Of a stretch of DNA of 64,000 bases, positions 6,721 to 30,770 are shown in pieces (position 1 is the first letter of the stretch; each line of letters opens with the position of its first letter). The stretch is taken from NCBI GenBank assembly GCA_964016885.1, contig OZ024743.1, forward strand, positions 115,630,001 through 115,694,000, written 5' to 3'. The notes below the pieces were generated by a model, which was given only the letters and a program-made list of their open reading frames with translations, made no database searches and had not been told where the DNA came from. Source of the DNA: Eledone cirrhosa. Taxonomy: Eukaryota. A program made the translations under genes and the position numbers.

Positions 6721-7110
6721 TCCTGATTAACTTTTTCAAATTTCATTTGAAAAGGAAAATCAGGGTAGAGAGGGAAGTGCTCTCTTCCCAGCATTTTGTT
6801 GAAAGATGGGTGAGAGAAGCAAGTATGGCCCGAATGAATGGGCCTTCTCTGAGTATGTGTCTGTAAATTAAAGGTGGAAAACTGGGAGAGGGCACTTGCC
6901 CTGGTGGTCAGGGCCACTGTGGTCTTTTAATGGGCTTTCTCCACAAATGTCCCTTGGAAGTCTCCCCCCTATTGGGGAATTTTTCTTTGTTATTTTATTT
7001 CAACCTCTGTTTTTTTACACGCAGAAATGCCCATTTGTACCGTCCTGTATTGTCCTGTACTGTCCTTAATGTCTACTTTATGTGAACCCTTGTGGTTAAT
7101 AAAGAAAACA
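6721..7110 (+). mobile_element. L1/Tx1-like element, 5'-truncated 3' end, flanked by (TTA)n on both sides
   Basis: Matches 16835-17233 and 29800-30190 (FFKFHLKRKIRVERE end of ORF2, 3'UTR, AATAAA). Confidence 0.9.
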
Positions 7111-7448: not shown

Positions 7449-10400
7449 TCCTTGAATCTCAGTCATTGATGTTGGTTAACTGGAAAGTCCGTTGGATTGA
7501 ATATCAAGCCACTACCTGCAGCCTCAGATATTCAGGACGTATCGGAGGGTTCTTGCCGTTCCAAGCAAGCATGCCTTTTGAAGCGTTCCAAAAAGCGTGA
7601 AGGGGCCGATTTTCTTTAACCATCCCTGGAAACCTTTGGAGATAGTCCCCAGTGCGCCTATGACAATCGGGATCACTTTGACTTCATGGCAGTTCCAAAT
7701 CCTTTTCACCTCCCACTTTAGGTCCTGGTATCGGTTAATTTTCTCCCTCTCCTTCTCTTGCACTCTCGTGTCGAACGGGCAGGCCACATCCACAATCAGG
7801 CACGATCTTTTTTCTTTGTCCACAACCACCAGGTCAGGTCTATTGTGTTCCAGTTTTTTGTCCGTCTGTATCCTAAAATCCCACAGCACCTTCACCTGAC
7901 TGTTCTCCATCACCGCCTCTGGCCTATGCTCATACCATTTCTCAGAATGTGGTAGATTGTTTACTTTGCACAGGTGCCAGTGGATCACCCTGCCCATCAC
8001 ATCGTGTCTCCAGCCCTTATAGTGGGTCTGGGCTAGGTGTTTACACTCGGACACAATGTGAGCCACAGTCTCCTCTCTCTCTCCACAGATCCTGCACAGT
8101 GGGCTAGCCTCCTCCTTGTAGATATGGTGCTTCAACCACTTCGTTTTGAGGGCCTGCTCCTGCGCAGCCATTAGCATTCCTTCTGTAGCCTTTTTGAGGT
8201 CTCCTCTTCTCAACCAGTTCCATGTCTGTGGATCTCTAAATTCAGTTTTCTCAAAGAAGGTACTATGAAGGGATTTTCCCTTAAGGCTGCTCTTCCTCCT
8301 TGATGTTATTTCCTCCTTGGGTATCCCCTGGCCTACTGTCCCCTCCTTCAGTACAGCTCTGAGCATTGGCTCCTTACTATAGGTCACGTATTTGTATAGG
8401 TTGTTTTTCTCCATCTGAACACAGTCCTCTATGCTGATAAGACCTCTTCCACCCTCAGATCTCCTTAGGTAGAGTCTATCGACATCACTCCTCTTGTGGA
8501 ACATGTTGTAGATAGTCAATAGCTTCCTAGTCTTCCTATCCATTTCTTTTTGTTCAGCAACATTCCATCTCAGAATTCCCGCACTGTACCTAATAATAGA
8601 CACAGCTCGGGAATTTACTGCGCTTATGGCATTTCTGCTGTTCAGATGTGACTTCAATACGCTCCTTACTCTCCGAATGTATTCAGTTCTTAACAATTCC
8701 TTCATTTTTTTGTTCTTTATGCCATCAGCCTCCAGAACGCCCAAATACTTGTATCCTTCCTCAGAGTCAATTTCCTTTATCATCTCACCTGTTGGTATCT
8801 GGATCCCGTTACTTCTGCTCAACCTACCCCTCCTCATCACAATGACTCCACATTTACCAATACCAAACTGCATACATATATCACTGCTGAAAATACGGAC
8901 AGTGTCAACAAGCACATCCAACTCCTTCTCACTTTTCCCGAAGAGCTTAAGATCGTCCATGAAGAGGAGGTGATTAGTGGTAAGCTCTCCCCTTCCCAAC
9001 TTGTATCCTGCTCTCACTTTTCGCAGCATAATGGTCAAGGGCATCAGGGCAAGGACAAACAACAGAGGGGACAGGCTATCTCCCTGGAAGATACCTCTCT
9101 TGATCTTCACGCTTCCCAAGGATACTCCAGTTGATGTCAACTCTGTCTCCCAGGACCCCATACTCCTGCCCAGCAACTGTCTGATGTTATCTGCCACCCT
9201 GAAGATCTCCAGGCTTTTGGTGATCCAGGAATGAGGCACCATGTCAAATGCCTTTCTGTAGTCTATCCATCCCATGGCAAGATCAGTGTGTCTCCTCCTG
9301 CAATTCCCCATTACCATCTTATCAATAAGCAACTGGTCCTTTGTACCACGTGACTTCTTTCGGCATCCTTTCTGTTCGTCCGGCAACAAGTTGTTTGTGT
9401 GGAGGTGATGGTAGATTTCCTCAGACACAATGCTCGTCAACAGTTTCCACATTACGGGCAGACATGTGATAGGTCTATAGTTGGTAACATCATTACCCTT
9501 GATTCGGTCTTTCATTATCAGAACTGTGGTACCTTTTGTCAACCACTCTGGCACCTCACCCGACACCAAGCAGTCATTGAACATGGCCGTCAGCTTCGGG
9601 TGGAGGGATGTTAAATGTTTAATCCAATACCCCTGCACACCATCTGGGCCTGGTGATTTCCAGTTGGTTAGTTTTTTGGCTTGCCCCTTAAGAGTTTCAA
9701 CTGTGATACTCAAATCAGTCTGTTGCTGTGCCTGCTCACCGATCTCCCTCTGTACTGTCTCAATCCACCCTGCCTGGGCATTGTGTCTAACATCCTGCTC
9801 CCATATTCCTCTCCAGAATGTTTTAGCTTGTTCCGCCCCAGGGATCAAGTCGGTGCCTCTTTCTTTCCCCTCAAGCTGTCCAAACAGCATCTTCTGGTTG
9901 TTGTCGAACATGCGGTTCTGTTTATACTGACTGACTCTGTTCTCGTATCGCCTGATTTTGGCACTCTTTGCTACAATGCGTTGCTTCAATTCCTCTATGA
10001 TAATATTTAGCTTTTTACTCCTAGTTTTGTATTTTATTTCCAGTCTATTTTTAGTGCCTATGTTTTTTAGTGTCCCATTCAGTAGTGACTCAAGCTTTCC
10101 TATGTCATTTCTCATTTCCCCGATTTGCCCACTCAGTCGCTTCTTCCACCACGGCTCTGCTCTTTCTTGTCTGTTGTTTCCTCTCGCTTTTATACCAAGT
10201 AGTTTCCTCACCGTATTTGCTGTTGCTTTGAGGATATTGTTGCACTGGTGAAGACTCCTCGCCTCAAGGTATGGGATGACCTTGTTTACCTTAGCTGTTG
10301 TTTCTTTTAACTTTTTCCTGTCTACAAATCTTAGGTTCATAGGTCTCCCACTATCATTGTTCAACTCATCTACCACTAAATTTAGGATGTCAACCGAATC

Positions 10401-10828
10401 TTGTCCTAGCCCGTCAGCATTCATCTCCTCAGTGGCCGTATCTCTGTTCCAGGTATTATTTATCTCAGTATTCAGATCAGTGTCTGCTTCGGGTGGTTCC
10501 TCCGCTCTCAGGACCTCCTCACCTTCATTTCCCGCCGGCTCGCTTGTCTGGCATACTACACCCGCCATCTCCAAGCCATTCTCTCTGCTCAGTTCCTCCA
10601 GTTCCAGCTCGCTTATCCACCCATTAGTTCTTATTACCCGAGCCTGCCCGGCCAATTGTTGTTCATCTAATTTAAATAAACCAATCTCGTTCCAGATGTT
10701 ATGCATCCGTCTCCTGTAGCCCCTCTCCTTGGGGTTACTTTTCAGGTAGCATTGCATAACAGTTCTATTCAATTCTTTCGTCCAGTTGGTTCTGGCCCCT
10801 TTCCTTCTTCTTCTTCCTCCAACATCAG

Positions 10829-11637: not shown

Positions 11638-12044
11638 TTATTATTATTATTTTTATTATTATTATTATTATTCTTATTGGCGACCTACGTAGGAAATCGT
11701 ATCATCGTGAACTCCGCAAATATTTGTTATTTTCAGTTGTTTAAAATTTCCATATACGGAAAATTTTTGTTTGTTAACTGTTTATATGTGCACATACATT
11801 GCTTTCTGAAAAGGACACTCAAAAAGATTCGGGCCTAGAGCCCAAAATTTAAACTTTTATAATTATCAAACAAAAAATTTCTTTTAAAAAAGCATGGACG
11901 ACTCACAGTTACACCAAGCAGCTGAGAGCCTTCCTCACAAACTAACACCTCACAGCAACACCACCATTGTAAATATGACTACGTTTGCCAAGACTAAAAA
12001 TATAAGCAGTAGCAATAATTTAAATTCATTTCCCGCCATTACCA

Positions 12045-13621
12045 ATGACTGCAGGTCTTGAAGCCGCCACCCCAACCACGGCAACAACAGAAACAAAAGA
12101 AAAAAATAAATTATCTCATGACATGGAAATTCATTCACCCAGAATCGACTCTTCCACACCGAACACCACTGACGCTACCACCACCACAACTGAAACTAAA
12201 AACAACAATAACAAAAAAAATAACAATAACAACAGCAAAAACAAGAATGAGAATAACAACACCGTGTCGTTTGCCAAAGCAGCCAAACAATGCGAAACAA
12301 TCCAGCAGGAGTTAGATGAAGCCAAGAGAATGGTAAAGAAAGATGGGTACAGGGCCAGCCCCCCCACCCCCCTCCACACACACCTAATAAAATGGACCAT
12401 CGGCGCCTATGCACCGTGTCTTATCGGACGATTAACATAAAATCGCGCCGAGTGGAACGGGCATCCGAGTTCCAAATCCAAAAACTTTGGGACATGTGTG
12501 GGCAAAAAAACCCACATCAGACGAGGGCAGAAATATGGAACCGTGGGCGTGTTCTTTGGAACACAGGAGGCCAGAGAGCACTCCATGGCCCTATTAAGAA
12601 GCGACGACTTCACACCCGTCCCAAACTATTTTGGCCAGAGACTCGTAAAGATCAGGGTGACCACGTTCAACCGGCCATCGAAATTCCCTGGCTAATGGCT
12701 GGCATCCTCGCCGGTATCGAGGCCAGCACCAAAATAATAGAAATAGCAAAAGAAAAGTAGGAGAACTGGTCCGGATCTGGGATGTAGCTCCTGATCCAAG
12801 CGGACAAAAAAGCACTGACGGCAGCCACCTCACCGTAATCATCGAGGGTAGAAGGCCTAGGTGTGTCGTTTGTGGTGAATGAAACCACCTAAGGGCTCTC
12901 TGCACTCAGGCTAAAAAGTAGAGGCTACTCCTCTTAACCACCAGCAGCAGAAATGGCAGCAACAACTGTAGCAGCAAAAACAGAAGCAACTGTACCAGCA
13001 AACAACCCCAGCAACAGTTGCAAAACCAACACCACCACCACCCAAAGCGCCAGAACTAGCACCAGCGCCTACACCATCCACCACGCCACAGCTAAACTAA
13101 CGCCTGTGGAGGATTTTCCACTCCCCGACCTATCGTAAAAAAAGAAAAAGAAACCAAAACAAGAAAAAATCCTATTCCTTCCCCCTCCAAAAACAAATAA
13201 GGTATCAAACAAAAAAGTTAGGACAGCTATGCCACCATCCACACTAGCATCACCAACCCCATCACCACAAACACCAACACCATCACCATCATTAACCCCA
13301 ACACCACCATCACCAACACCACAGAAGTTACCAAAAAGCGAAACAGAATAAAACCCACAACAAACGCAAACAAAACAAAACAACCAAAACGATACACACT
13401 TCACACCATTAAATTTGAACAACAACCAATTACTACACTACATCCAACACATCACCAGCATCACAGAAAAAGACTACACAACACCCCAAAAGTTCACACC
13501 ACAACCACACTCACATCACACAGGACTCTCCAGGAGGATTTATAAGGATATCCTTCCGGAGGAGGTCACAAGCAGTGAAAAGGATGCAGAAAGCATCCTT
13601 CCTGTACGAGAAGTAAGGTAA
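12045..13621 (+). pseudogene. Tx1-like ORF1 (gag-like), frameshifted
   Basis: Pieces SFAKAAK..ELDEAKRMV and CTVSYRTINIKSRRVER, a decayed CCHC near 12863-12903, and the end ..ILPVREVR*. Homologous to 24673-26717. Confidence 0.8.
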
Positions 13622-13655
13622 GTGGTCTTTCCCATCTTTTCAACTCCATTTCAAC

Positions 13656-16600
13656 ATGACTTCACTCAGAATAGGCAGCATAAATGCGCCTGGCTTGGGG
13701 TCGTCATGGATGCAGGGCCACTTGCTCAACGACCTCAGGTGACTAAACATAGATGTAGTGGCCATCAGCGAGACCAGAATCTCCGAAGCACGGGCCTTCG
13801 CACCTATCTTCGGTGGCTACGATGTGTAAGCATCTCCCAGCCGTCCTGGATCGGGGGGAAGAGTTGCTGTGCTTTTTCGGAGAGGTTTGGATCTCGCCAT
13901 ACGGGCCATCTTCCTGGACTCAGAAAGGAATTTGGTGGTGCTGGACGTGACAAGCGGAGACGGGCAAGCTTTCAGGTTAGTGGCCGTCTATTTCCCGATA
14001 GGAGCAGGGCGGCCTGATTTCTTCCTGCGTCTGGAAACCTTTCTTGGAACATCTCGTTCTTTACTGTTAGTGGGCGACTGGCACGGGATCATAGATGCAC
14101 GCTGGGACTGTGTGGGATTAGTGGATAGGAGAGGAGGGTGTAAAAGCCTCGCAAACCTGCTCAGACGTTTTCAATTGTCTGACAGGTACCGTCTGGATTT
14201 CCCAAATGTGCCAATGTTGTCATGGACAAACCGCATCGGGTGATCCAGATCATATTTAGATAAAGTATTTTGTATGGAAATAGATAGATCTAGCATAGGC
14301 TGTCCACAGTTCAAGATAGTAAGCTACACGGACCACAAATTCGTGATATGTGTGCTTGACTTAGACAGGCTTCATAGACGAGGACCCGGCTACAGGAAGC
14401 TAAACGCGTCCCTATCAGCGCGCAAGGCCTACAGCGACCGGATTAGCGAACTAGTTAAGCGGGCGTTGATATGCCATCGTCATCAAAAAATAAAGCAGAG
14501 GGAGAACTATTTAGAAAATTAGACGGGGCGCTTAGCAAATGCATTGGGGCCGACGTACTTGCGGCGAAATTTGCCCTTGACCAATTCTTCAATGCAAAGC
14601 ACGAAGGCTGCGTTGTCAGAGCTAGGGTGCGTTCTTTCAGACACCAGGGTACGAAAGCCGTTCAATGGGCCCGATGGTGGAGCCGTGTCGTGGTATCAAA
14701 GCCACGGTCTGGTCTTTGGTGGACCATGACGGGCGCTTGCTACTCGATCCCGGGAATATGTGTGAAACTTTTCAGCGACACTTCGCTCAGCTGTTCTGGG
14801 GCAGCGGCGGATCGGATCGAGGGATGGACTCTAGTGTCTACCTCGAAGGACTGCCGCGGCTCTCGGCCGCTGAGGCGTAGCGTTGCGAAAAGCCGATAAC
14901 AGCAGCTGAAATACGGGAGGAAATGACTGGCTGCACAAGGAGTGAATTGCCTGGTTTTGATGGTCTGCCCTATGAACTTTACGTACAGATTCCAGACTTG
15001 TTCGGAGGCCTCTTGGCGGACGTCTACTGCAACTGGTAAAAGAAACGGGAGAATTCCGAGCTCTGTGAGCCGAAGAGCAGTGGCGCTGCTGAGAAAGGAT
15101 CCGAACAAGGGGGATAACATAGATGATTTCAGGCCCATAACTCTGCTAAAGTTCAAGATTTTGGAAAGGGGCTAGCAAAGAGGTTGGCGCTTGTCGTTGA
15201 TGGTCTGGTGGGCCAGGCGCAGACGTGCGCCATTCCCGGCATATCCATCCAAGACAACCCCCACATCATGCGATACATCGTGGTGTGGGTAGCTAGGGAA
15301 CCTGGCACGGGTCGGTCCTTGATCAATTTAGATTAGTCGAAAGCTTTCGATAGGTTCGACCATCGTTACCTAAAGGCAGTCCTTAGGGCGGCTGGATTTG
15401 GGCCCGTCTTCAGAAGCTGGATCGCTGCCATGCACAGCGACATCTGCTCTGTGGTGAGAGTGAACGGTCACGTTTCGGAACCGTTCAACATCATGCGCTC
15501 GGGCCGCCAAGGATATACCCTCTCGTCCCTCTTGTACATATTGACTCTCGAGCCATTACTGCACAAAGAGGGAACGTTGAGGTGGATCCTGCGCGAAGTA
15601 GGATGCGGAAGATTCGTGTTAGCATATGCGGACGATGTCACCGTAATGGTGTCGAACGCCAAACACATCGAGGCGATCGGCTCTACACTTAGAGAATACG
15701 AAGCGTTGACAGGAGCAATGTTCAACCAGGAAAAGTCAGTGGGCCTGCAGCTCGACACCTGGAGACGCAGGTCCATGCCGTCCAACAGCGTCGTCTGGCG
15801 CTGGAAGGACGGACCGGTTAAATTGTTAGGGGTCTGGTTCGGTCCGGACCTCCAGACGGACAAAAACATGGACGAGGTAACGAACAGGGTGGCTTCTCTC
15901 ACCCAGAAATGGGCGGAGAGGAAGCTATGCCTGAAATGTCGAGCGGAGGTGGCTAACGTGTACATCGCGCCCGTTATCTACTACCGCCTGACCGTCGTAT
16001 CTTGTCTTAAGCCTCGCCTGACTACGCTGGAGCGTTTGCTGTTTCGCTTTTTGTGGAATGGACGCGCTACATGGTCAGGCTGTCAACACCCACTACGTGG
16101 AGGGCTGGGCTTGCTGTGGCTGAAGATGCGCAGACACGCGCTCAGGCTACGACATCTCCACCTCTTCCTTGACGATGATTAGGTGTGGTGACCGTTTGCT
16201 AGACGCGTCTTTCCCCAGCTCGTCTCCTTGATGGAGCTGCAGTCCTGGGTCAAGCGAAGACCGAGAGGGAGCGCTTGGAGACTGGAATGTCTTCAGGCGC
16301 TCACAGCCTTCGACCAATCGGGCAATGTGATCGGTGGAAACTGCACCTTGACGTCCTATACAGGATTATTTGAGGGGAAGAGCGACGACGTACTTGTGGA
16401 AATTCTAGGCGTCGACGAAAATCAACTAGCCAATCTCTTCGGAAGAACTTTCGGGCCGGGGCCTATGGACAACTTCCAGAAATCCCTGGCCTGGCAGTGC
16501 TATCGAGGAGTTTTGCCAGTTCGGTATAAACTCTACAGGTATGGAGGTACGGTCAGCCGGGCATGTCTGAGATGCGCGCAGGGCGACGAAACCGTCCTGC

Positions 16601-16972
16601 ACGCACCCGTCCAGTGTCCGAGCATTGCTGACTTGTGGGTTTATGTCGAACACCTGCTGTCGCGAGTAGGCGGATCCAGCTATCAGCTGAGTCGATCGTG
16701 AGGATTGCCCCACCCTCTTCCTTTAGCCGGGAAAGGCAGGCAGTTTTTATCTGTCTGGCAGCCATGGCGAAAGAGATAGTATGATTGACACGTTTGAAAG
16801 GGCTGAAGACGAACACTTACCTCTTCGGTGATGCCCTGATTAAATTTTCAAATTTCATTTGAAAAGGAAAATCAGGGTAGAGAGAGAAGTGCTCTTCCCT
16901 GCAGTTTGTTGAAAGATGGGTGAGAGAGTCAACAATGGCCCGAGTGAATACTCTGAGTATGTGTGTGTGTAA
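13656..16972 (+). pseudogene. Tx1-like ORF2 (APE endonuclease + RT), frameshifted
   Basis: Starts ATG-ACT-TCA-CTC-AGA-ATA (MTSLRIGSIN). ORF pieces 13869-14243, 15430-16182 and 16228-16701. Confidence 0.9.
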
Positions 16973-18034
16973 ATTAAAGGTGGAAAACTGGGAGAGGGCA
17001 CTTTCCCTGGTGGTCAGGGTCACTGTGGCTTTTTAATGGGCTTTCTCCACGAATGTCCCTCGGAAGATTCCCCCCCCCCCCCTATTGGGGAATGTTTTCA
17101 TTGTTCTATTATTACATCCTCTGTTTTTTTTGATTTTTTTACACGCAGAAATGCCCTTTTGTACCGTCCTGTATTGCCCTGTACTGTCCTTAATGTCTAC
17201 TTTATGTAAACACTTGTGGTTAATAAAGAAAGTATTATTAGTGTTATTATTATTATTATTGTTATTGTTTTGTTGTCGTTATGTGTATTTGTTTTATTGT
17301 GTGTGTACGTGACGTGTAGCGTTAAATCTCTATGTATACACAGGTTATATGCTGGACTATCTGAAGATCATAAAAAAATATATCCCTTGATGTTACATAT
17401 TAAATTTATGGTATACTCGTCACGACATTTATTAATGTGTTTTTTTCATTTCGGGCGTAAGATGTTATTCTGTTGGGATATAAATAGAGGTATAATTTTA
17501 ATACAATTTGAATCTAGTGCAGGTTTTATATTGGCTATTAACTCTCTCAAGTGTTCTTGTTCTTTCATATTTGTTCTTTGGTTCATTAGTGACAGATATT
17601 ACGTAGATGATGAATGTACATATGGAACCCTAACTTCTGATTAATTCATAGGGTCGCTATAATGATATGCAGCGAGTCATGAACATTTTAATCATGGCAG
17701 AGCCATCTTTTCTCCTTCTCCAGATTTATTCAGTAAAGGAGAGAGAAAGAGATAGATATATAGAGAGATGAGAGAGAGTGAGAGAGTAATAAGAAGTAAG
17801 CGAACAAAAAAAAGCATCCTTACTAGCCTTTTACCATTCATCGACCTTAAAACGAGGAAATTATAACTGCACATGATTTGAACTCAGTGTTGACTGTTGG
17901 CACGAATACCAGCAGTCAACACTTTGTCGATTTGCAACCCCATGTTGATGCTATTGTCGAGAATATTGTGGACTTTTGAAGAAAAGAGAAGCAATCCACT
18001 TGCTACAGTAAAGTGAGAGTAACATTCTTAATAA

Positions 18035-19482: not shown

Positions 19483-22400
19483 AGTTGCATTTATCTTGCT
19501 TTATGTTCATACGAGTTATCACCAAGTCACAACCAGTGACCTCAAGAGACAAAAGGTCCGCCATGTTCAAGAAAGAACATACATACTCACACATGCATCT
19601 TTAGTGTTTAGACTTGTGATGTACTTATATTGACAGAATCTTCCTTAGTATATGGGCAGTTCCCATTAGTACTATCTTTTGTATTTCTCCTATACGCGGG
19701 TTTCCTGGGATTTGCGATAAGTAATCATTAGACCCCTTAGGTATCATACCCAGAGCGCCTACAACCACTGGTATTGTTTTAGTTCTCAATTTCCACATTT
19801 TTCCAATTTCTATCTCCAGGTCCTTATACTTGCTCAATTTGTCAAATGTTTTTATAGATACGTTCTTGTCTATTGGAACAGACATATCAATTAGCAGGCA
19901 TACCCTCTTTTTAAAGTCCTTCAATATTATATCAGGTCTATTTGCATCTATTTTTCGGTCTGTTTGGATGCTAAAGTTCCACAAGATTGAGATGTGATCT
20001 TTTTCAAGTATGGGAGGTGGTTGATGCTCCCACCAATTCTTTTGATGGGGCAGGTCAAAATGCTTACACATTATCCAATGTATGTATTGTGCAGCTCTGT
20101 CATGCCTGTTTAGGTATTCGGTTGGAGCTATAGGACTGCACATTGAAATTATATGGTCAATGGTCTCTGGTTGTGTTTTGCATACACGGCATAATGGGCT
20201 GCATCCATTTTTTATTATGTTGGCGTGGTAATTTTTTGTTCGCAGACACTGATCTTGTGCTCATATAATCAGTCCTTCAGTCTCCGATTTCCATCCAGAG
20301 GATGCCAACCACTGATGGGTTAAGGTTTTGTCAACATCAGGATTGTTAGCTCGCTCTGGGTATTTTCCATACAGAGGCTTTTCTTGCCATTTCTTAGCCA
20401 GTTTCTGTGGCAGTTCTTTCTTTGCAGTTACTTTTACCTGCTTTGCTTTTTCTGTGTTTTCCATTTCAGCAGTAAATGGGACTTCTGAAATTTGTCGTCC
20501 ATTACTGTATCTTTGTGCATCTTTTTCTAATGGAATATGATCTTTTGAAGCTTTCGTGTTTCAAAACGAGTTTGATCATCCAATCATGTGATTCCCTTAG
20601 ATATGTAGATAATCCAATTGTTGCAGTTTTCAACGCAATGTCTAACTGGATTAACCCACGTCCTCCTTCTTTCCTAGGGAGATATATTCTATCTATATCT
20701 GCCTTAGGGTGATGCATTCTGTTCATGGTTAAGAGTTTTCGAATTTTTGTATCGAGCCTACGGATCTCTGTGCTTGACCAGTTGATGACATTGTAACTGT
20801 AGGTTACTACTAGTATGGCAAGCGTGTTTATGGCATCCATCCTATTCCTTGCATTCAATTCCGTTCTTAAGATTGCTCTTACTCTGCGGTAACACTCCTT
20901 CCTTATCCTTTCCCTCATTGTCGAGTGCTTGATTCCGTCTCCTTCACAAACACCTAGATATTTGTAAGTTTTTTCTTGATCAAGTTCTCTTATCACGTTC
21001 CCCCGATCAAGATTAATGTCTGAACTCTTCAGCAGCTTTGTGAACGTTTCTCTGGCGCATTTATCTAGTCCAAACTCCATTTTAATGTCATCACTGAACT
21101 GCTCCACAGTGGATAATAGCCCTTGCAATTGTTCATCATTTTTTGCAAATAGTTTCAGGTCATCCATATAGAACAAGTGATTAATGGTTTTGCCATAGAC
21201 TTTATATCCGTGTTTTGTTTCATTGAGCATTTTACTTAATGGTATAAGTGCGATGCAGAATAAAAGCGGTGATAAAGAGTCACCCTGAAAAATTCCACAA
21301 TTAATATTAACTTCTCCAGCTGCCAGTGATTGTGTTTCACTATTCAAAAGGAGTGTCGTTTTCCACTGTCTTCATACTGAATGACAAACACCTCCTGACA
21401 ACGGGGGATATTTTGAAAATCTCTAAACATTTTTCTATCGAACTGTGTGGCAAACTATCGAATGCTTTTTTATAATCTATCCAAGCAATCGATAGAATTT
21501 TGTGTCTATTATGACAATCTTCCAGTATCATTTTGTTAACCAGAAGCTGATCCTTACAGCCATATGAGCCTCGTTTACACCCTTTCTGCTCAATGGGAAA
21601 TAGGTCATTTGTTATCAGGTGGTCATATGTGTATTCAGTTAGGACTGATGTTAACATTTTATACATTGTTGCGAAGCAAGTTATCGGTCTGTAATTTTGG
21701 GGATTGTTTGTCTCATCATTCTTCGGAAGCAGGAATGTAATGCCGTTAACTAGCCATGATGGTATCTTTTCTGGCTCCTTAACTATTTCATTGTAAAGTT
21801 GGGCTAACAGCTCATGAGACTCTGAGAAGGCATTTATCCAAATGTTTTGTAATTTGTCTTTTCCTGGGGATTTCCATTTGCTGGTTTTTCTTAGAACCAA
21901 GCGCAACTGTTCAACTGTTATATTTTCCCATATTTGTTCCTCAAGGTGAGCTGTATCTTTCATTTGTCTGTCTATCCATGGGGCATGTATATTATGAACT
22001 TTGTCTTCGGCCCAGATCTTTTCCCAGAATTCTTGCACTTCCTCCTTGGGTGGTATTGATTTAGCAGTTATTGTTGACTTACCAATTTTTCTGTAGAAGT
22101 TTCTTTGATTGTTTTTGAACATATTATTGTCCTTATAGAATCTAGATCGTTTTTCAAAGCGCCTTATACGAGTACATTTGGCCGACACTTTTTGCTTGAT
22201 TATTTCTATCAGCATGTCTATGTCACTTGTTGATATTATACTGTACTTTTTTTTCAATTTTCTAAGTTTAGTTTGTTTAACATGTTCACCTACTTTATAG
22301 TTTGTTAAAATTTCTATGTCCCATCGGAGAAGGTTTATTTGGCGATTGATGTTCTCTTGCCAAGTAGATTTCTGCTGGGAATTCCTTTGTTTTTTTTATC

Positions 22401-23430
22401 TTCACTCCACATAAGTGAGTGGTGACTTTAGCCGATGCATAATAGAGATGATTTTAAATCAGTAATGTTTAGTTTGTTTGTGAAGATAATATTTTTTGAG
22501 AATTATGTTAGTCTTGTGTATTATCTTTTGGAGTTCTGGCTCTTAGGGAAGGTGTCTCGTTGCCCCATGTCAGATTCTTTCATTTTCATCCATTCGATCA
22601 TAATTTCATCCTTCAAGTTAGCAAGTTCATTCTCATTCATTTCTTTATCATTTACGATCTCATTATTTTCATTTGGAGTTTCATCTTGAGCATGCACTCC
22701 CTCCACTTTTTCGATCCTTTCTTTAATTTGTTCTGTTGCCAGTGATTCCGCCCCAGCCCTGGGATTCGAAGTGTTACAATTTACCTCGTTTTCACTGACA
22801 CATGTTTCATTTCCCCATCGCTGACTTTGTGCTAATAGCTTGATCTGATCAACTTGTATATCAGTTAGTAACTTTTTTCTTACAATATTTCTTCGTATAT
22901 TGGCTAGTTTGTTACTGTCAATATAGCCTCTGTTTTCGGGATGTTTCTTTTTCCAGTTGATATATGTCTTTTCTGTATTCGATGTATTTGATGGGTAGTA
23001 CATGGCAGTGTAGAAAGCCTCAAGGACTTCTTTATTATCTTCCCTTGACCATTTTTCTCTCTATTTCTTTGGATTTCTTGGTGTTGAGCATGGAGGGCCA
23101 ACAGTAGGAGTATTCCGGTTATGGGAGGTTTCCAGCTCCGAAGTGATGGGAAGGTTTGAACCATTAGCTGCTTTTTCGACCCCAGTCTGGTTCCTCTCGG
23201 AGGGACGCGGCCCTTTTTTACCCGGGTGACGGCCGATCCGGTATGAGATTTTATCATTAGACATTTACTTTATTTTGTCGCATTTTATCCATATCCGCCA
23301 AGGGGTAATCATTTCGTGTTACCACTTCTAGAACGAGTGTCAATCAAGACTAGAGGGCTCGTTCTCCCCTAGAGACACGGCTATTCGCCGCCGGCCGCCA
23401 TCCCGGTATTTCTTGGTCACGGGGTTTTCT
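19481..23430 (-). mobile_element. R4/Dong-like family B retrotransposon, apparently full length but frameshifted, with (TAA)n tail
   Basis: ORFs 23061-23264, 22521-23003, 21340-22257 (YRPITC, DYKKAFD), 20502-21347 (QGDSLSP, FYMDDLKL), 20261-20464 and 19625-20143 (RHD, RPDIILKD..LIDMSVP). (TTA)n at 19428-19480. The protein is clearly distinct from family A. Confidence 0.93.
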
Positions 23431-24458: not shown

Positions 24459-24672
24459 GAATGCTATGGTTGACGGAGGCTCGGCTCTGTAAGGAATTGT
24501 AAATTTTGAACGCTATAACAATTGTAAATTGTTTGAAACTTTAACGAACTTGTAGACAAAAACACCCTCCTCCTCGTGAGAGGGGTCTTTCTGCCCGTTA
24601 TTTGGCCCTTCGGGGTTAAGTAACTGCTTATTGGGGTTTTGTGCCAATATTTATTTTAAACAAAAAAACAAC

Positions 24673-26717
24673 ATGGCTACGAAAAAGAATTTTCATAGGT
24701 CACTCCCACTCATTCCGTTTTCTTCTTCCTCAATCATCACTACAGCAGAGAGAAGATTGTCTCTCCCCCTCCCTTCTTTAAATGTGTCTCTCTCCCTCCC
24801 TTCTCTTTCGCAAGCGACGACAGAAAAGAAAAGTCTCGTGCAAAGCGTGCAAGATTTCACCACAACGACGACGACAACGACGAAACAGGTGTGCGGGAAA
24901 TACGAAAACCCATTTCATTCGTCTGACGTCAGGAATAATAGCAGTAGCAGCCGTAATAACAACAGCAACAGTGACAATGAAAACAACAGTAGCAGCCGCA
25001 TAAACAACAACAGCATTAGCAGCAGCAACACCAACAACAACCACAGCAACAGCGGCGGAGACAGTAGTCGTAGTACCTGCAGCAACAACAAAAGTAACAG
25101 CAGCTCTGACGACAACAACAACAACAGCAGCAAAGAAAAACCAATCTCGTTTGCAGGTATCGCGAAGAACCTGGAAACAATCCTCATAACAAATGAGGAA
25201 TTAGAGGAAGCGAAGAAGATGGTGACAAAGACCGGACACCGAGCAATCTGCAAGGCAGCGGAAACATTTTTCGAAACCCAACAGCACTGTACGGTCACGT
25301 ACCGTACGGTAAGTACAAAATCCCGTAGGGTTGAAAGACCCACAGAGGCTCAAATACAAAAAGCCTTGGGTCTGTGTGGCAGCGGAAAACGCACATCACC
25401 CGAAGCAAAAAATATGCCACCGTAGACGTACTTTTTGTCACACCCCAGGAGGCAAAGGCTCAATCCGTAGTGATCCTAAGGAGCGAGGAAATGGTGTTGG
25501 TGCCCTCCTACTGCGGGCAAAAAATTGTGAGGGTCAAACTCACCCACGTCCCACCCGGGATGGCCCCTTCTTGGCTGGCCGCGTCTGTCCTCGTCGGAAT
25601 CGAGAACAAAACAACTGTACTGCAAGTACAGAAAAAAGTAAGGGAAGATTGGGTCGGCACCTCCATTGAGATGTTAATCCAAACCAACCAGGAGTGCATC
25701 GAAGCTATCCCGGATGTGATAGACTTCGATAACGGCACTCAGCTGCCCATAAGTGTTGAGGGCAAACGCCCGAAATGCTTTCGCTGTGGATCGAAGACTC
25801 ACCTCAGGGCCTTCTGCAACGAGAAGACCCTGAGAAAGGAGAAAACCCCCCTCCTTCCGAAACTGGCTCCACGGCTACCAGCAACAGGACAAGCGGCAAC
25901 CAGGAACGATAGGTCCGTGGCACCCATACCTACGCCACGGAAATCAGCAGCAGTGGAAATATTAACAACAACAGCAGCAATACCAAATGCAGTTGCAACA
26001 GAGACTCCAGTGCAAACATCACCAACAACAACAAGTGAAAGAGTGGAGCTGGTACCTCTCCCCGACCTCACAGAATCAGACATGGAGTGTGAGGTGGGAG
26101 AGGGATGGCAAAAGGTCGTAAGAAGGCACAAACGCAGAAGCAGCGCTTCGTCGCCTTTGAAAAGGGAGGAAAGAAATGATAAAATGGTAAAGTCTACTGC
26201 AAAGAGACTCACAGCAACAACACCACCAACACCATCACCACCCACACTAGCACCACCATCACCACCGGCGACAAACCCACCGCCAACAACACCTTCAACA
26301 CCACCACCACAAGCACCAACATCGCAAACACAACAACAAAACACACACACCCAGCAACAACGACAAGAAAATAGCAGAACCACACCCCACCCCCAGAAAA
26401 ACAAATGCACGGCAATAAATACACACAACAAGAAACTAATGACTTACATAATTGAACACACAGACATTTCATAACACGACTACATAATACCAGCACTAAA
26501 AATAGCACAGAAACAATACACAAACATTAAAACGAAATTCCCCAACGCAGTTGGTGATTTCAGGGACCTAGGAGGAACTAGCAATCGAAGAGTATATTCG
26601 GACATACTCATAGAAGAGCCGACGACCAGCCGAAGGGACGATTCAACGGTCCCTTCACCAGACGATCAAGTGAAAAAGGATGTAAAAACCATCCCTCCTC
26701 TACGAAAAGTACGGTAA
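24673..26717 (+). pseudogene. Tx1-like ORF1 (gag-like, CX2CX4HX4C zinc knuckle), one frameshift and one premature stop
   Basis: ORFs 24631-25425 and 25374-26474 (CFRCGSKTHLRAFC). The same frame continues past the TAA at 26474 to ..IPPLRKVR* at 26717. Confidence 0.85.
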
Positions 26718-26752
26718 GTGGTATTTCCCATCTTTTCCACTCTATTTTAAAC

Positions 26753-29700
26753 ATGACCTCACTCAGAATAGGCAGCATAAATGCGCGTGGCTTGGGGTCG
26801 TCATGGAAGCAGGGTCATCTTCTCAACGAACTCAGGTCACTAAACATAGATGTAGTGGCCATCAGCGAGACCAGAATCTCCGAAGCACGGGCCTTCGCAC
26901 CGATCTTCGGCGGCTACGATGTGTACGCATCTCCCAGCCGTCCTGGATCGGGGGGAGGAGTTGCTGTGCTTTTTCGGAGAGGTTTGGATCTCCCCATACG
27001 AGCCATCTTCCTGGACCCAGAGGATAAGCTGGTGGTGCTGGACGTGACCAGCGGAGACGGGCAAGCTTTCAGGCTAGTGGCCGACTATGCCCCGACAGGA
27101 GCAGGGCGGCCTGATTTCTTCCGGCGTCTGGAGAAATTTCTTGGAACGTCCCGCTCTTTAGTGTTAGTGGGCGACTGGAACGGGATCTTAGATGCACGCT
27201 GGGACTGTGTGAGATTAGCGGATAGGGGTGGAGGGTGCAAGAGCCTCACCAACCTGCTCAGGCGTTTTGAACTGTCTGACAGGTACCAGTTGATATTTCC
27301 CGAATGTGCCAATGTGGACTTGGTCAAATCGCATAGGGTCATCCAGATCATATCTAGATAGAGTATTTTGTAGGGAAATAGATAGGTCTAGCATAGGCTG
27401 TCCACAATTCAAGATAGTCAGCTACACGGACCACAAATTCGTGATCTGTGTGCTTGACTTAGATAGCCTTCATAGACGAGGACCCGGCTACTGGAAGCTA
27501 AACGCGTCCTTACCAGCGCGCAAGGCCTACAGAGACCGGATTAGCGAACTAGTTAAGCGGGTGTTGACGGGGGCCATCGTCAACAAAAGTGGTGGTTTGC
27601 TCTGAAAAGAGCGATTAGAATAGAATCCATTAGGTTTAGTAAGGCTTTAGCAATAGAGAAAAATAGAGCAGAGGGAGAACTAGATAGAAAATTAGACGAG
27701 GCGCTTAGCAAAGGCATTGCGACCGACGTGCTTGCGGCGAAATTGGCCCTTGACCAATTTTTCAATGCAGAGCATGAAGGCTGCGTTGTCAGAGCAAGGG
27801 TGCGTGCTCTCAGACACGAGGGGACGAAAGCCGTTCAATGGGCCCGAGTGGCGGAGGCGCGTCGTGTCATCAAAGCCACGATCCGGTCTTTGGTGGATCA
27901 CGACGGGCGCATGCTACTCGATCCCGGGAAAATGTGTGAAGCTTTTCAGCGACACTTCGCTCAGCTGTTCGGGGGCAGCGGTGGGCCGCGTCGAGTGATG
28001 GACTTTAGTGTCTACCATAACGGACTGCCGTGGCTCTCGCCCACTGAGGCGAAGTGTTGCGAAAAGCCGATAACAGCCGCTGAAGTAAGGGAGGCAATGA
28101 CTGGCTGCACAAGGGGTAAATGGCCAAGGTGCTAGCAAAGAGGTTGGCGCTTGTCGTTGGTGGTCTGGCGGGAGAGGCGCAGACATGCGCCTTTCCCGAC
28201 AGATCCATCCACGACAACCTCCACCTCATGCTATACATCGTAGAGAGGGTAGCTAGGGAACCTGGCACGGGTCGGTCCTTGATCAATTTAGATCAGTCGA
28301 AATCTTTCGATAGGGTCGACCATCGTTACCTAGCGGCAGTCCTGAGGGCGGCTGGCTTTGGGCCCGTCTTCAGAAGCTGGATCGCTGCCATGCACAGCGA
28401 CATCTGCTTTGTGGTGAGAGTGAACGGTCACCTGTCGGAACCGTTCAACATCATGCGCTCGGTCCGCCAAGGATGTCCCCTCTCGTCCCTCTTGTACGTA
28501 TTGACTCTCGAGCCATTACTGCACAAACTGTAGACGTTGAGGGGCGTCCCGCGCGAACTAGGATGCGGAAGATCCGTGTCAGCATATGCGGACGATGTCA
28601 CCATAGTGGTGTCGAACGCCAAACACATCGAGGCGATCGGCACTACACTAAGAGAATACGAAGCGGTGACAGGAGCAATGATCAACCAGGAAAAGTCAGT
28701 GGGACTGCAGCTCGGCACCTGGAGAGGCAGGTCCATGCCGTCCAACAGCGTCGTCGGACGCTGGATGGACGGCCCGGTTAAATTGCTAGAGGTCTGGTTC
28801 GGTCCGGACCTCCAGATGGACAAAAACTGGGACGAGGTGACGAGCAGGGTGGCTTCTCTCACCCAGAAATGGGCGGAGAGGAAGCTATCCCTGAAAGGTC
28901 GAGCGGAGGTGGCTAACGCATACATCGCGTCTGTCATCTGCTACCGCCTGCCGTCGTACCTTGTCCTAAGCCTCGCCTGACTGCGCTGGAGCGTTTGCTC
29001 TTTCGCTTTTTGTGGAAGGGACGCGCTCCGATGGTCAGGCGGTCCATCTGTTGTCAACACCCGCTACATGGAGGGCTGGGCGTGCCGTGGCTGATGATGC
29101 GCAGGCACGCGCTCAGGCTACGACATCTACACCTCTTCCTCGACGGTTATCAGGTGTGGTCGCCGTTTGCTAGACACGTATTTCCCTAGCTCGTTTCCTT
29201 GACGGAGCTGCAGTCCTGGGTCAAGCGAAGACCGAGAGGGAGCGCCTGGAGACTGAAATGTCTTCAGGCGCTCACAGCCCTCGATCAATCGGGCAATGTG
29301 ATCGGTGGAAACTCCACCTCGGCGTTCTATAGAGGATTAGTGGAGGGGAAGAGCGACGACGTACTTGGGCAAACTCTAGGCGTCGACGAAATTCAACTAG
29401 CTAATCTCTTCGGAAGAACTTTCGGGCCAGGGCCTATGGACAACTTCCAGAAATCTCTGGCCTGGCAGTGCTACCGAGGAGCCTTGCCAGTTCGGGATAA
29501 ACTCTACAGGCATGGAGGTGCCGTCAGCCGGGCATGTCCGAGATGCGCGCAGGGCGACGAAACCGTCCTGCACGCACTCTTCCAGTGTCCGAAAATTGCT
29601 GACTTGTGGGTTTGTGTCGAACACCTGCTGTCGCGTTTAGGACGGATCCGGCTATCATCTGTGTCCATCGTGAGGATTGCCCCGCCCTCCTCCTTTAGCC

Positions 29701-29939
29701 GGGAAGGGCAGGCAGTTTTTATCTGTCTGGTGGCCATGGCGAAAGAGATAGTGTGGTGGACACGTTTGAAAGTGTTGAAGACGAGCACTTACCTCTTCGG
29801 TGACTTTTTCAAATTTCATTTGAAAAGGAAAATCAGAGTAGAGAGGGAAGTGCTCTCTTCCCAGCATTTTGTTGAAAGATGGGTGAGAGAAGCAAGAATG
29901 GCCCGAGTGAATGGGCCTACTCTGAGTATATATCTGTAA
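26753..29939 (+). pseudogene. Tx1-like ORF2 (APE + RT + C-terminal Cys motif), frameshifted, with internal deletion
   Basis: MTSLRIGSINARGL..ISETR..VGDWN..SYLDRV..YTDHKF, then DQSKSFDRVDH, RQGCPLS, AYADD and CPRC..ETVLHALFQC. It lacks the segment matching about 14950-15165 of copy 1. Confidence 0.92.
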
Positions 29940-30218
29940 ATTAAAGGTGGAAAACTGGGAGAGGGCACTTGCCTTGGTGGTCAGGGTCATTGTGGCCTTT
30001 TACTGGGCTTTCTCCACAAATGTCCCTCCGAAGTCTCCCCCCTATTGGGGAAATTTTTATTGTTATTTTTTTGTTACATCCTCTGTTTTGTTTTCCACAC
30101 GCAGAAATGCCCATTTGTACCGTCCTGTATTGTCCTGCACTGTCCTTAATGTCTACTTTATGTAAACCCTTGTGGTTAATAAAGAAATCATTATTATTAT
30201 TATTATTGTTATTGTTAT

Positions 30219-30770
30219 TCCTTGAATCTCAGTCATTGATGTTGGTTAACTGGAAAGTCCGTTGGATTGAATATCAAGCCACTACCTGCAGCCTCAGATA
30301 TTCAGGACGTATCGAAGGGTTCTTGCCGTTCCAAGCAAGCATGCCTTTTGAAGCGTTCCAAAAAGCGTGAAGGGGCCGATTTTCTTTAACCATCCCTGGA
30401 AACCTTTGGAGATAGTCCCCAGTGCGCCTATGACAATCGGGATCACTTTGACTTCATGGCAGTTCCAAATCCTTTTCACCTCCCACTTTAGGTCCTGGTA
30501 TCGGTTAATTTTCTCCCTCTCCTTCTCTTGCACTCTCGTGTCGAACGGGCAGGCCACATCCACAATCAGGCACGATCTTTTTTCTTTGTCCACAACCACC
30601 AGGTCAGGTCTATTGTGCTCCAGTTTTTTGTCCGTCTGTATCCTAAAATCCCACAGCACCTTCACCTGACTGTTCTCCATCACCGCCTCTGGCCTATGCT
30701 CATACCATTTCTCAGAATGTGGTAGATTGTTTACTTTGCACAGGTGCCAGTGGATCACCCTGCCCATCAC
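30219..30770 (-). mobile_element. R4/Dong-like family A, 550-bp 3' fragment between (TTA)n runs
   Basis: ORF 30294-30770 matches the C-terminus of 7524-10772. I see only two nucleotide differences from 7449-8000. Confidence 0.95.

Follow-up and report, generated by a model that had tools for sequence, protein, structure and literature searches.

We analyzed a 64,000-nt window of the Eledone cirrhosa genome, which measures 3.0 Gb, and identified two copies of an L1/Tx1-type LINE, both on the forward strand. Copy 1 (11679..17233, subfamily A) is full-length but broken, and is flanked by (ATT)n-type repeats. It comprises an ORF1 remnant (11894..13621, with an inferred start, homology from 12264 and the stop codon TAA at 13619-13621), an ORF2 with APE endonuclease, RT and a zinc motif (13656..16972, also broken, from ATG at 13656-58 to TAA at 16970-72), and an AATAAA poly(A) signal (17222..17227) located before an (ATT)n-type tail. 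Both ORFs carry stops and frameshifts, and the copy is dead; young intact copies of the family were found elsewhere in the genome. Copy 2 (24459..30189, subfamily B) has its ORF2 at 26753-29939 and AATAAA at 30178. Named relatives came from Octopus sinensis and Argonauta hians, which fits an octopod host.

On intact copies, ORF2 contained the Pfam domains PF03372, PF00078 and PF13966, and its best PDB match was human L1 ORF2p (E 9e-53); no integrase was present among the Pfam matches of the element. ORF1 is separate, 697-699 aa long, and has a CCHC knuckle visible in its sequence. A Pfam search with ORF1 gave nothing above cut-off, Atlas matches were zf-CCHC and RBD_ZCCHC3 (0.92-0.93), and a protein search with the ORF1 C-terminus, which was a weak search, gave no match. 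The simple-repeat flanks are (ATT)n or (TATC)n/(TA)n, representing either the target or the element's own tail, and tandem arrays of copies occur with a spacing of 5.8-6.2 kb. The poly(A) signal and repeat tail indicate a non-LTR anatomy, which places the element outside Ty1/copia. The preliminary description of a Tx1-like LINE was borne out by the APE-RT-zinc ORF2, the CCHC-type ORF1 and the simple-repeat association; judged by domains, ORF1 type and repeat association, the element is a Tx1-type LINE of the L1 superfamily. Using divergent queries, we collected 16 lineages (A, B, C, C', D, E1, E2, E3, E3p, F1, F2, G, H, H', I and J), among which identity of the ORF2 N-terminus is down to 55% over the first 80 residues. 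Thin lineages are H' and J, with one copy each that has both ends, E3p with one and I with three. Metagenome scans for relatives returned none that was usable (L261 was a false bacterial match), and our statements on conservation cover one genome.

The end of ORF1 contains a match to the 5' splice site. In copy 1, the letters AG|GTAAGT (13616..13623, forward strand; GT at 13618-19, phase 2) overlap the stop TAA at 13619-21, exactly as first reported. A counterpart of the form G|GTRRKT was present at the ORF1 end, 28-53 nt upstream of the ORF2 start, in 16/16 lineages. This motif is crossed in phase 2 in A, B, D, F2, H, H', I and J, in phase 1 in C, C', E1, E2, E3p and F1, and in phase 0 in E3 and G; with three reading phases, protein constraint cannot account for it. 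Protein queries, rather than donor queries, gave 120 loci, the ORF2 start being present in 116, and 104 of these 116 had G|GTRRKT 10-65 nt ahead of that start, the other 12 having point changes, deletions or a 5'-truncation. Positions -1..+6 had the commonest letter in 110/112 cells, compared to only 6-13 of 16 in the flanks; since sites were located by the GGTRRKT pattern, it is the presence of the motif (104/116) and not this cell count that serves as the test. The variants GTGAGT, GTAGGT and GTAATT all remain splice-like (lineage G has GTAGGT in 4/5 copies, and the copy displayed has GTAAGT). ORF2 four-fold sites were 40-60% different between A/B/C and E, in a table without lineage D rows, as the D copy is frameshifted. 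The donor was the best or tied-best sense-strand U1 match in 8/8 elements scanned, and the ORF1 stop was always 3' of the cut (at +2..+4, +6..+8 or about +28..+39). On these comparisons the donor match is more than chance and appears selected. Conservation across copies, which the preliminary description had proposed as a check, held in part: the donor is kept in 16/16 lineages while its flanks diverge, and the CAG then taken as its acceptor and the splice phase are not kept.

Downstream of the donor lies a pyrimidine-rich spacer (13624..13655, forward strand in copy 1), which has a C/T content of 76-84% in nine lineages and is predicted to pair with the donor. Both G's at the cut (G-1 and G+1) were predicted paired in 17/17 folds, a result that is largely explained by composition; the natural order clearly beat 300 tract shuffles only in C, C' and E2 (3/17). 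The C and C' spacers contain a 9-nt complement of the donor, which we take to resemble the U1 5' end. A conserved hairpin as a selected feature was rejected because the registers differ by lineage. By analogy with retroviruses, a donor that is partly hidden, combined with a weak acceptor, may fit an element that must retain unspliced RNA.

Candidate acceptors were found at the far end of ORF2. In 13 lineages, ORF2 terminates in CTRTAG, mostly followed by G, and by a crude home-made score this TAG ranked within the top 16% in 13/13 of them, 0-40 of the roughly 260 AGs scoring higher. Read in the donor's frame, a join of the donor to the ORF2 TAG would reach a stop after 0-3 codons in 11/13 lineages, namely C (9/10 copies scored), C', E1, E2, E3, E3p, F1, F2, G, H' and J, and in F2, H' and J the spliced ORF1p would equal the unspliced one. 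Permutation of phase labels gave p 0.004, and 6/8 fits with p 0.02 after collapsing to 8 groups, both values being optimistic because the idea is post hoc and the lineages share ancestry. Between F1 (phase 1, AG|GT TGA) and F2 (phase 2, AG|G TGA), a single-base difference is present at both ends of the 3.4-kb span. In E3 (phase 0), the former phase-1 stop is gone in 5/8 copies and the phase-0 stop is kept in 8/8. Among lineages met once the idea existed, J fits and I mostly does not: the rule fails in 2/3 copies of I. Lineage H, which is young and abundant, has no near stop, as it mostly comes after 41 codons (in others after 38-78 or not at all), with two older copies in which it is nearer. 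C, H and H' have a weak acceptor, with 12-40 sites scoring above it.

A different arrangement was observed in A, B and D, which share one branch in trees computed for the two ends of ORF2 (limited to the 29 copies in which both are present). This branch combines phase 2, TAA replacing TAG, and a T-tract/CAG 160-177 nt downstream of the stop, after which 19 codons and a stop precede the poly(A) signal. The downstream CAG is exclusive to A/B/D, with no AG at the matching place in C, C' and F, and ranks 1st-2nd or tied 1st of about 250 by a crude acceptor score, by which a coding stretch about 250 nt upstream of the ORF2 stop in A/B/D is its equal. Ten-base repeat slips in the A/B/D tail shift the frame in some copies (L235, L237 and L238). 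In copy 1, the predicted acceptor is a T-rich tract and CAG in the 3' UTR (17119..17148, forward strand), and the predicted last exon (17149..17209, forward strand) would consist of a single base that completes the split codon, followed by 19 codons and TAA; the predicted ORF2-removing intron would span 13618-17148 (3,531 nt). The 3' UTR CAG of copy 2 ends at 30104 (forward strand). The 3' UTR CAG was rejected as a universal acceptor, because C, C', E1, F, G and H lack it.

We tentatively suggest, with a confidence somewhat short of even, that the donor splices to an acceptor at or just past the ORF2 stop, 3.4-3.6 kb away; this would excise the entire ORF2, and the resulting mRNA would carry ORF1 alone. 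The idea is a post hoc one. U1 would bind the donor, and the acceptor would be the ORF2 TAG in 13 lineages and the T-tract/CAG about 170 nt past the TAA stop in A, B and D, including copy 1. ORF1p made from spliced RNA would end 0-3 residues past the junction (20 in A/B/D). Nonsense-mediated decay is avoided when a stop lies at or after the junction, and the junction-proximal stop of the spliced RNA would be expected to escape it. The weak acceptor and donor-spacer pairing may hold part of the RNA unspliced, and this unspliced RNA would both give ORF2p by reinitiation and serve as the transposing template. Spliced RNA would yield no ORF2p in cis and would therefore seldom be copied into the genome. 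In a wider form, which we hold a shade more loosely, this one clade of Tx1 elements would treat the whole ORF2 as a facultative intron between two stops, with ends phase-coevolved across 3.4 kb; spacer-donor pairing (in lineage C, with a copy of the U1 5' end) would set the ORF1p:ORF2p ratio, and ORF1p would be almost unchanged. Against the model, H and I break the stop rule, and no ORF1-only genomic copy was found for the joins and loci searched.

Genomic copies of spliced RNA were searched for in several ways. With fixed 14-nt flanks, gaps of 0-12 nt gave 0 matches and gaps of 13-70 nt gave 1,224, and the upper bound on the intron-less fraction is near 0.25%. One report on human L1 found 116 of 6,609 full-length copies (1.8%) to be spliced and notes that L1 proteins favor their own RNA (PMC5860796); the human rate would predict about 22 spliced copies here, compared to 0 found, and precisely intron-lacking copies of the SpIRE type were not seen. 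For subfamilies A and B, a search for any jump past the exon end yielded 7 matches, each explained by a small indel or a point change (joins starting NT were excluded, and hence a weak AAG|GTGG site 7 nt past the A/B/D stop). The same search in E1 gave 0 matches, with no retained-count control. No ORF1-only copy of A/B joined to the 3' UTR CAG was found, and there was no ORF1-only copy among 391 loci, the sole search covering C, F, G and H. Thirteen 'F' matches for an ORF1-only join were rejected, because the motif used was loose and all 6 of those listed were unrelated sequence. In DNA-like contigs of runs X1-X3 (one sample), no joint at the donor was present among the 15 listed of 39 matches, nor among the 15 listed of 732 in a second search, a weak negative. 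A search of sequencing runs with a degenerate copy as query listed no run recorded as RNA, a result that speaks for neither side.

These counts bear on the preliminary proposal of a 52-nt micro-intron that would join ORF1 in frame to ORF2 as a gag-pol-like fusion. The letters of this layout were confirmed in copy 1, where GT at 13618 and the CAG put forward as acceptor (13667..13669, forward strand) have both ends in phase 2 and join in frame. Copy 2 has the same layout over 53 nt (GT 26714, CAG 26764-66), and this 53-nt length is a subfamily trait (27/28 other copies among those listed, plus the window copy). The first AG is in frame in A and B, some in-frame YAG lies within reach in 10/16 lineages, and one column, TAG|G at Ile/Val-Gly, is common to nine A-E lineages. 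However, just 5/16 lineages have their first downstream YAG in frame, which is chance level; no in-frame YAG occurs within the first ten ORF2 codons in 6/16 (F1, G, H, H', I and J); the phase is 2, 1 or 0 by lineage; and the donor-to-ATG distance is just 28 nt in H and H'. By its codons and distribution, the near CAG is not more than chance: it corresponds to an ordinary N-terminal Leu-Arg codon pair of ORF2, and most lineages either lack it or have it in another frame. If spliced RNA encoded a fusion protein, this protein should act in cis and copy its own template, so genomic copies would be expected, and the search for intron-less copies that had been called for gave 0 against 1,224 intron-retaining ones. 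Among 150 endonuclease relatives listed, a single N-terminus had ORF1-like sequence, and it is unspliced, since the spacer and Met are retained. The further argument that splicing restores the first APE strand adds nothing, because the unspliced ORF2 start is already at the relatives' usual Met position. We consider the micro-intron highly improbable, and the fusion was rejected as a family-wide mechanism, though less strictly for A and B taken alone, for want of a conserved near acceptor or phase and of any intron-less copy. From the earlier interpretation, the L1/Tx1-type LINE and the conserved 5' splice-site match at the ORF1 end survive, and the 52-nt intron and the ORF1-ORF2 fusion do not. 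This negative result is important in that a gag-pol fusion can be dropped as a family-wide mechanism.

Other explanations of the donor were also considered. U1 snRNP may bind the site with splicing being rare or never occurring, and either suppress poly(A) signals in the A-rich ORF1 end or stabilize full-length RNA, as at the major donor of HIV-1 and foamy virus, a retroviral precedent described in one report (PMC12789967). We regard this main rival as rather unlikely, although it agrees with a donor that is conserved without a universal acceptor and that stays intact even in H and I, which break the spliced-stop rule, with A[A/T]TAAA hexamers 100-750 nt upstream in 7/8 elements, and with the lack of spliced genomic copies; by our estimate the hexamer frequency is about that predicted from base composition, and both the phase-matched stops after the ORF2 TAG and the CAG exclusive to A/B/D are left unexplained. 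The donor may instead be spliced to a different acceptor or to more than one, whether nearby AGs that are out of frame, sites within ORF2 or host exons, and ORF2 output would be damped in this way. Independently, an ORF2-only mRNA may arise if a donor in the 5' UTR uses the YAG that closely precedes the ATG. In 7/16 lineages (C, D, E1, E3, E3p, F1 and F2), a YAG located 1-9 nt upstream of the ATG is the top or tied-top acceptor of the element, and donor-like GTAAG occurs near several 5' ends. However, this YAG is missing in the remaining lineages, including copy 1, lies just 30-48 nt from the donor, and such joins have no genomic trace in A/B and E1, and we judge the possibility improbable. 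We give similarly little credence to a motif that is not a U1 site at all, which would either act at the ORF1 stop in reinitiation or protein binding, or persist through descent and coding constraint. The motif partly overlaps the stop and last codons, its G-1 and G+1 are predicted paired in all 17 folds, and human L1 is reported to retain a donor for a transcription-factor site (PMC5860796); on the other hand, it survives three reading phases and TAA as well as TGA stops, its variants remain splice-like, and the hairpin registers are lineage-specific, with the shuffled-tract control clearly beaten in just 3/17. Under any U1-based reading, including the preferred removal of ORF2, thousands of young copies would bring a strong donor into host introns.

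Several known systems can be compared with this element. HAL1 elements are half-L1 elements with ORF1 only, and a copied form of the predicted spliced RNA would likewise give an ORF1-only element, but no such copy was found here. Translation of human ORF2 is AUG-independent. In lineage G of the present family, the start reads ATA. The HIV-1 donor is held in a hairpin, and the donor described here, also a strong U1-type site, is predicted to lie in one; the retroviral donor is promoter-proximal, whereas this one is about 2 kb in, between two ORFs. The major splice donor of HIV-1 and foamy virus is described as a strong U1 site with possible polyadenylation suppression (PMC12789967). In mammalian L1 and SART1, ORF2 is reported to be made by termination-reinitiation (PMC5972666), a mechanism without a splice donor; the bicistronic RNA and short spacer are shared, and this is the likely ORF2p route here. 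Human L1 also has a long-conserved donor in its RNA, and its spliced RNA (SpIREs) is reported to be retrotransposable (PMC5860796); in human L1 these sites lie in the 5' UTR and at the beginning of ORF1, and their use has left copies in the genome, whereas the site here is at the ORF1 end and none were found. The Tx1 clade (Tx1, Kibi, Koshi and Keno) is described with the same APE-RT-zinc ORF2, RRM/CCHC-type ORF1 and microsatellite association (PMC4494074, PMC5203782), but our literature search found no conserved ORF1-end splice donor in these elements. In O. vulgaris, 13 recently active L1-Tx1 families were reported, and splicing is not mentioned in the accessible part of that report (PMC13282606). 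The literature covered contained no description of L1/Tx1 elements in which splicing fuses ORF1 to ORF2 or removes ORF2 as an intron; Repbase reports and most subscription journals are outside this scope, and novelty is thus unproven.

LINEs require far more ORF1p than ORF2p, which is usually ascribed to inefficient reinitiation on one bicistronic RNA. The closest parallel to the predicted removal of ORF2 involves copia (Drosophila) and EVADE (Arabidopsis), for which a spliced subgenomic gag mRNA is reported, the unspliced RNA making the enzyme and transposing (PMC7197481). In both cases the structural gene has a donor close to its end, which leads, here by prediction, to an mRNA for that protein alone. 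We found a donor at the structural ORF end in 16/16 lineages, and phase-matched stops in 11/13 lineages are consistent with an acceptor that would remove the enzyme ORF and close the structural one, H and I failing in this respect. Copia, however, is an LTR element with a single gag-pol ORF and demonstrated splicing, whereas the element described here is a two-ORF non-LTR element in which the intron, from the ORF1 stop to the ORF2 stop, is a predicted one. If the model is true, removal of ORF2 as a conserved intron would provide a second route to ORF1p excess, convergent with copia gag splicing.

The two copies of the Tx1-type LINE in the window, which represent subfamilies A (11679-17233) and B (24459-30189), have an ORF2 N-terminus that is ~98% common to both, whereas only 36% of ORF1 is shared over the alignable part. 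This difference suggests a swap of ORF1 directly upstream of the donor (the G|GTRRKT match at the end of ORF1). A short 3' fragment of the same family was present at 6738-6863 on the forward strand. Other LINE sequences were on the reverse strand, including an element at 7524-10757 with a 1,077-aa ORF containing RT-like and C-terminal CCHC/PD-D-like motifs, which we read as a putative R4/Dong-like LINE, a broken relative (19625-23003) and a LINE 3' fragment (30294-30767). Elsewhere in the genome, head-to-tail arrays of 5–10 copies with 5.8–6.9 kb spacing were detected (G000:C1:423365215-423418066 and C1:55426671-55452870). Element tails were (ATT)n in lineages A–E and (TATC)n/(TA)n in F–H.

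Two predicted proteins contained element sequence. In P0098, a single reading frame runs through ORF1-like sequence, the translated spacer between donor and ORF2, and the Met of ORF2. It was rejected as an example of the proposed micro-intron fusion of ORF1 to ORF2, since spacer and Met are retained in frame; judged by its sequence, it is a read-through of an unspliced copy. In P0003, a 'tectonic-3-like' model of O. sinensis, the first ~60 residues correspond to the endonuclease of the Tx1-type family, and this protein is either a chimeric annotation or an exonisation. Junction deletions were observed in four single copies (L217, L297, L298 and L366), and their ends were not GT-AG. L298 lacked the donor, yet both ORFs were open; L297 lacked the ATG and had a long joined frame.

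All five lineage G copies examined (L267, L276, L288, L289 and L291) had an ATA instead of an ATG at the ORF2 start, overlapping the TAG stop of ORF1. Open frames of 626 and 1,145 codons were present in one copy of this lineage (full copy, L296). The ATA start suggests that ORF2 may be translated independently of AUG or that the copies may be mobilised in trans.

Additional splice-like sites were found. In lineages C, D, E1, E3, E3p, F1 and F2, a pyrimidine tract and YAG preceded the ORF2 ATG by 1–9 nt, and among the acceptor-like sites of each element this YAG ranked first or tied for first. It could partner a 5' UTR donor, giving an ORF2-only mRNA. Donor-like GTAAG(T) sequences occurred near the 5' ends of L294, L296, L223 and L158 (lineages H, G, E1 and B). 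The spacers of lineages C and C' (L091-L120, L312 and L234) contained a 9-nt complement of the donor, with which the donor is predicted to form a perfect hairpin. This complement resembles the 5' end of U1 snRNA.
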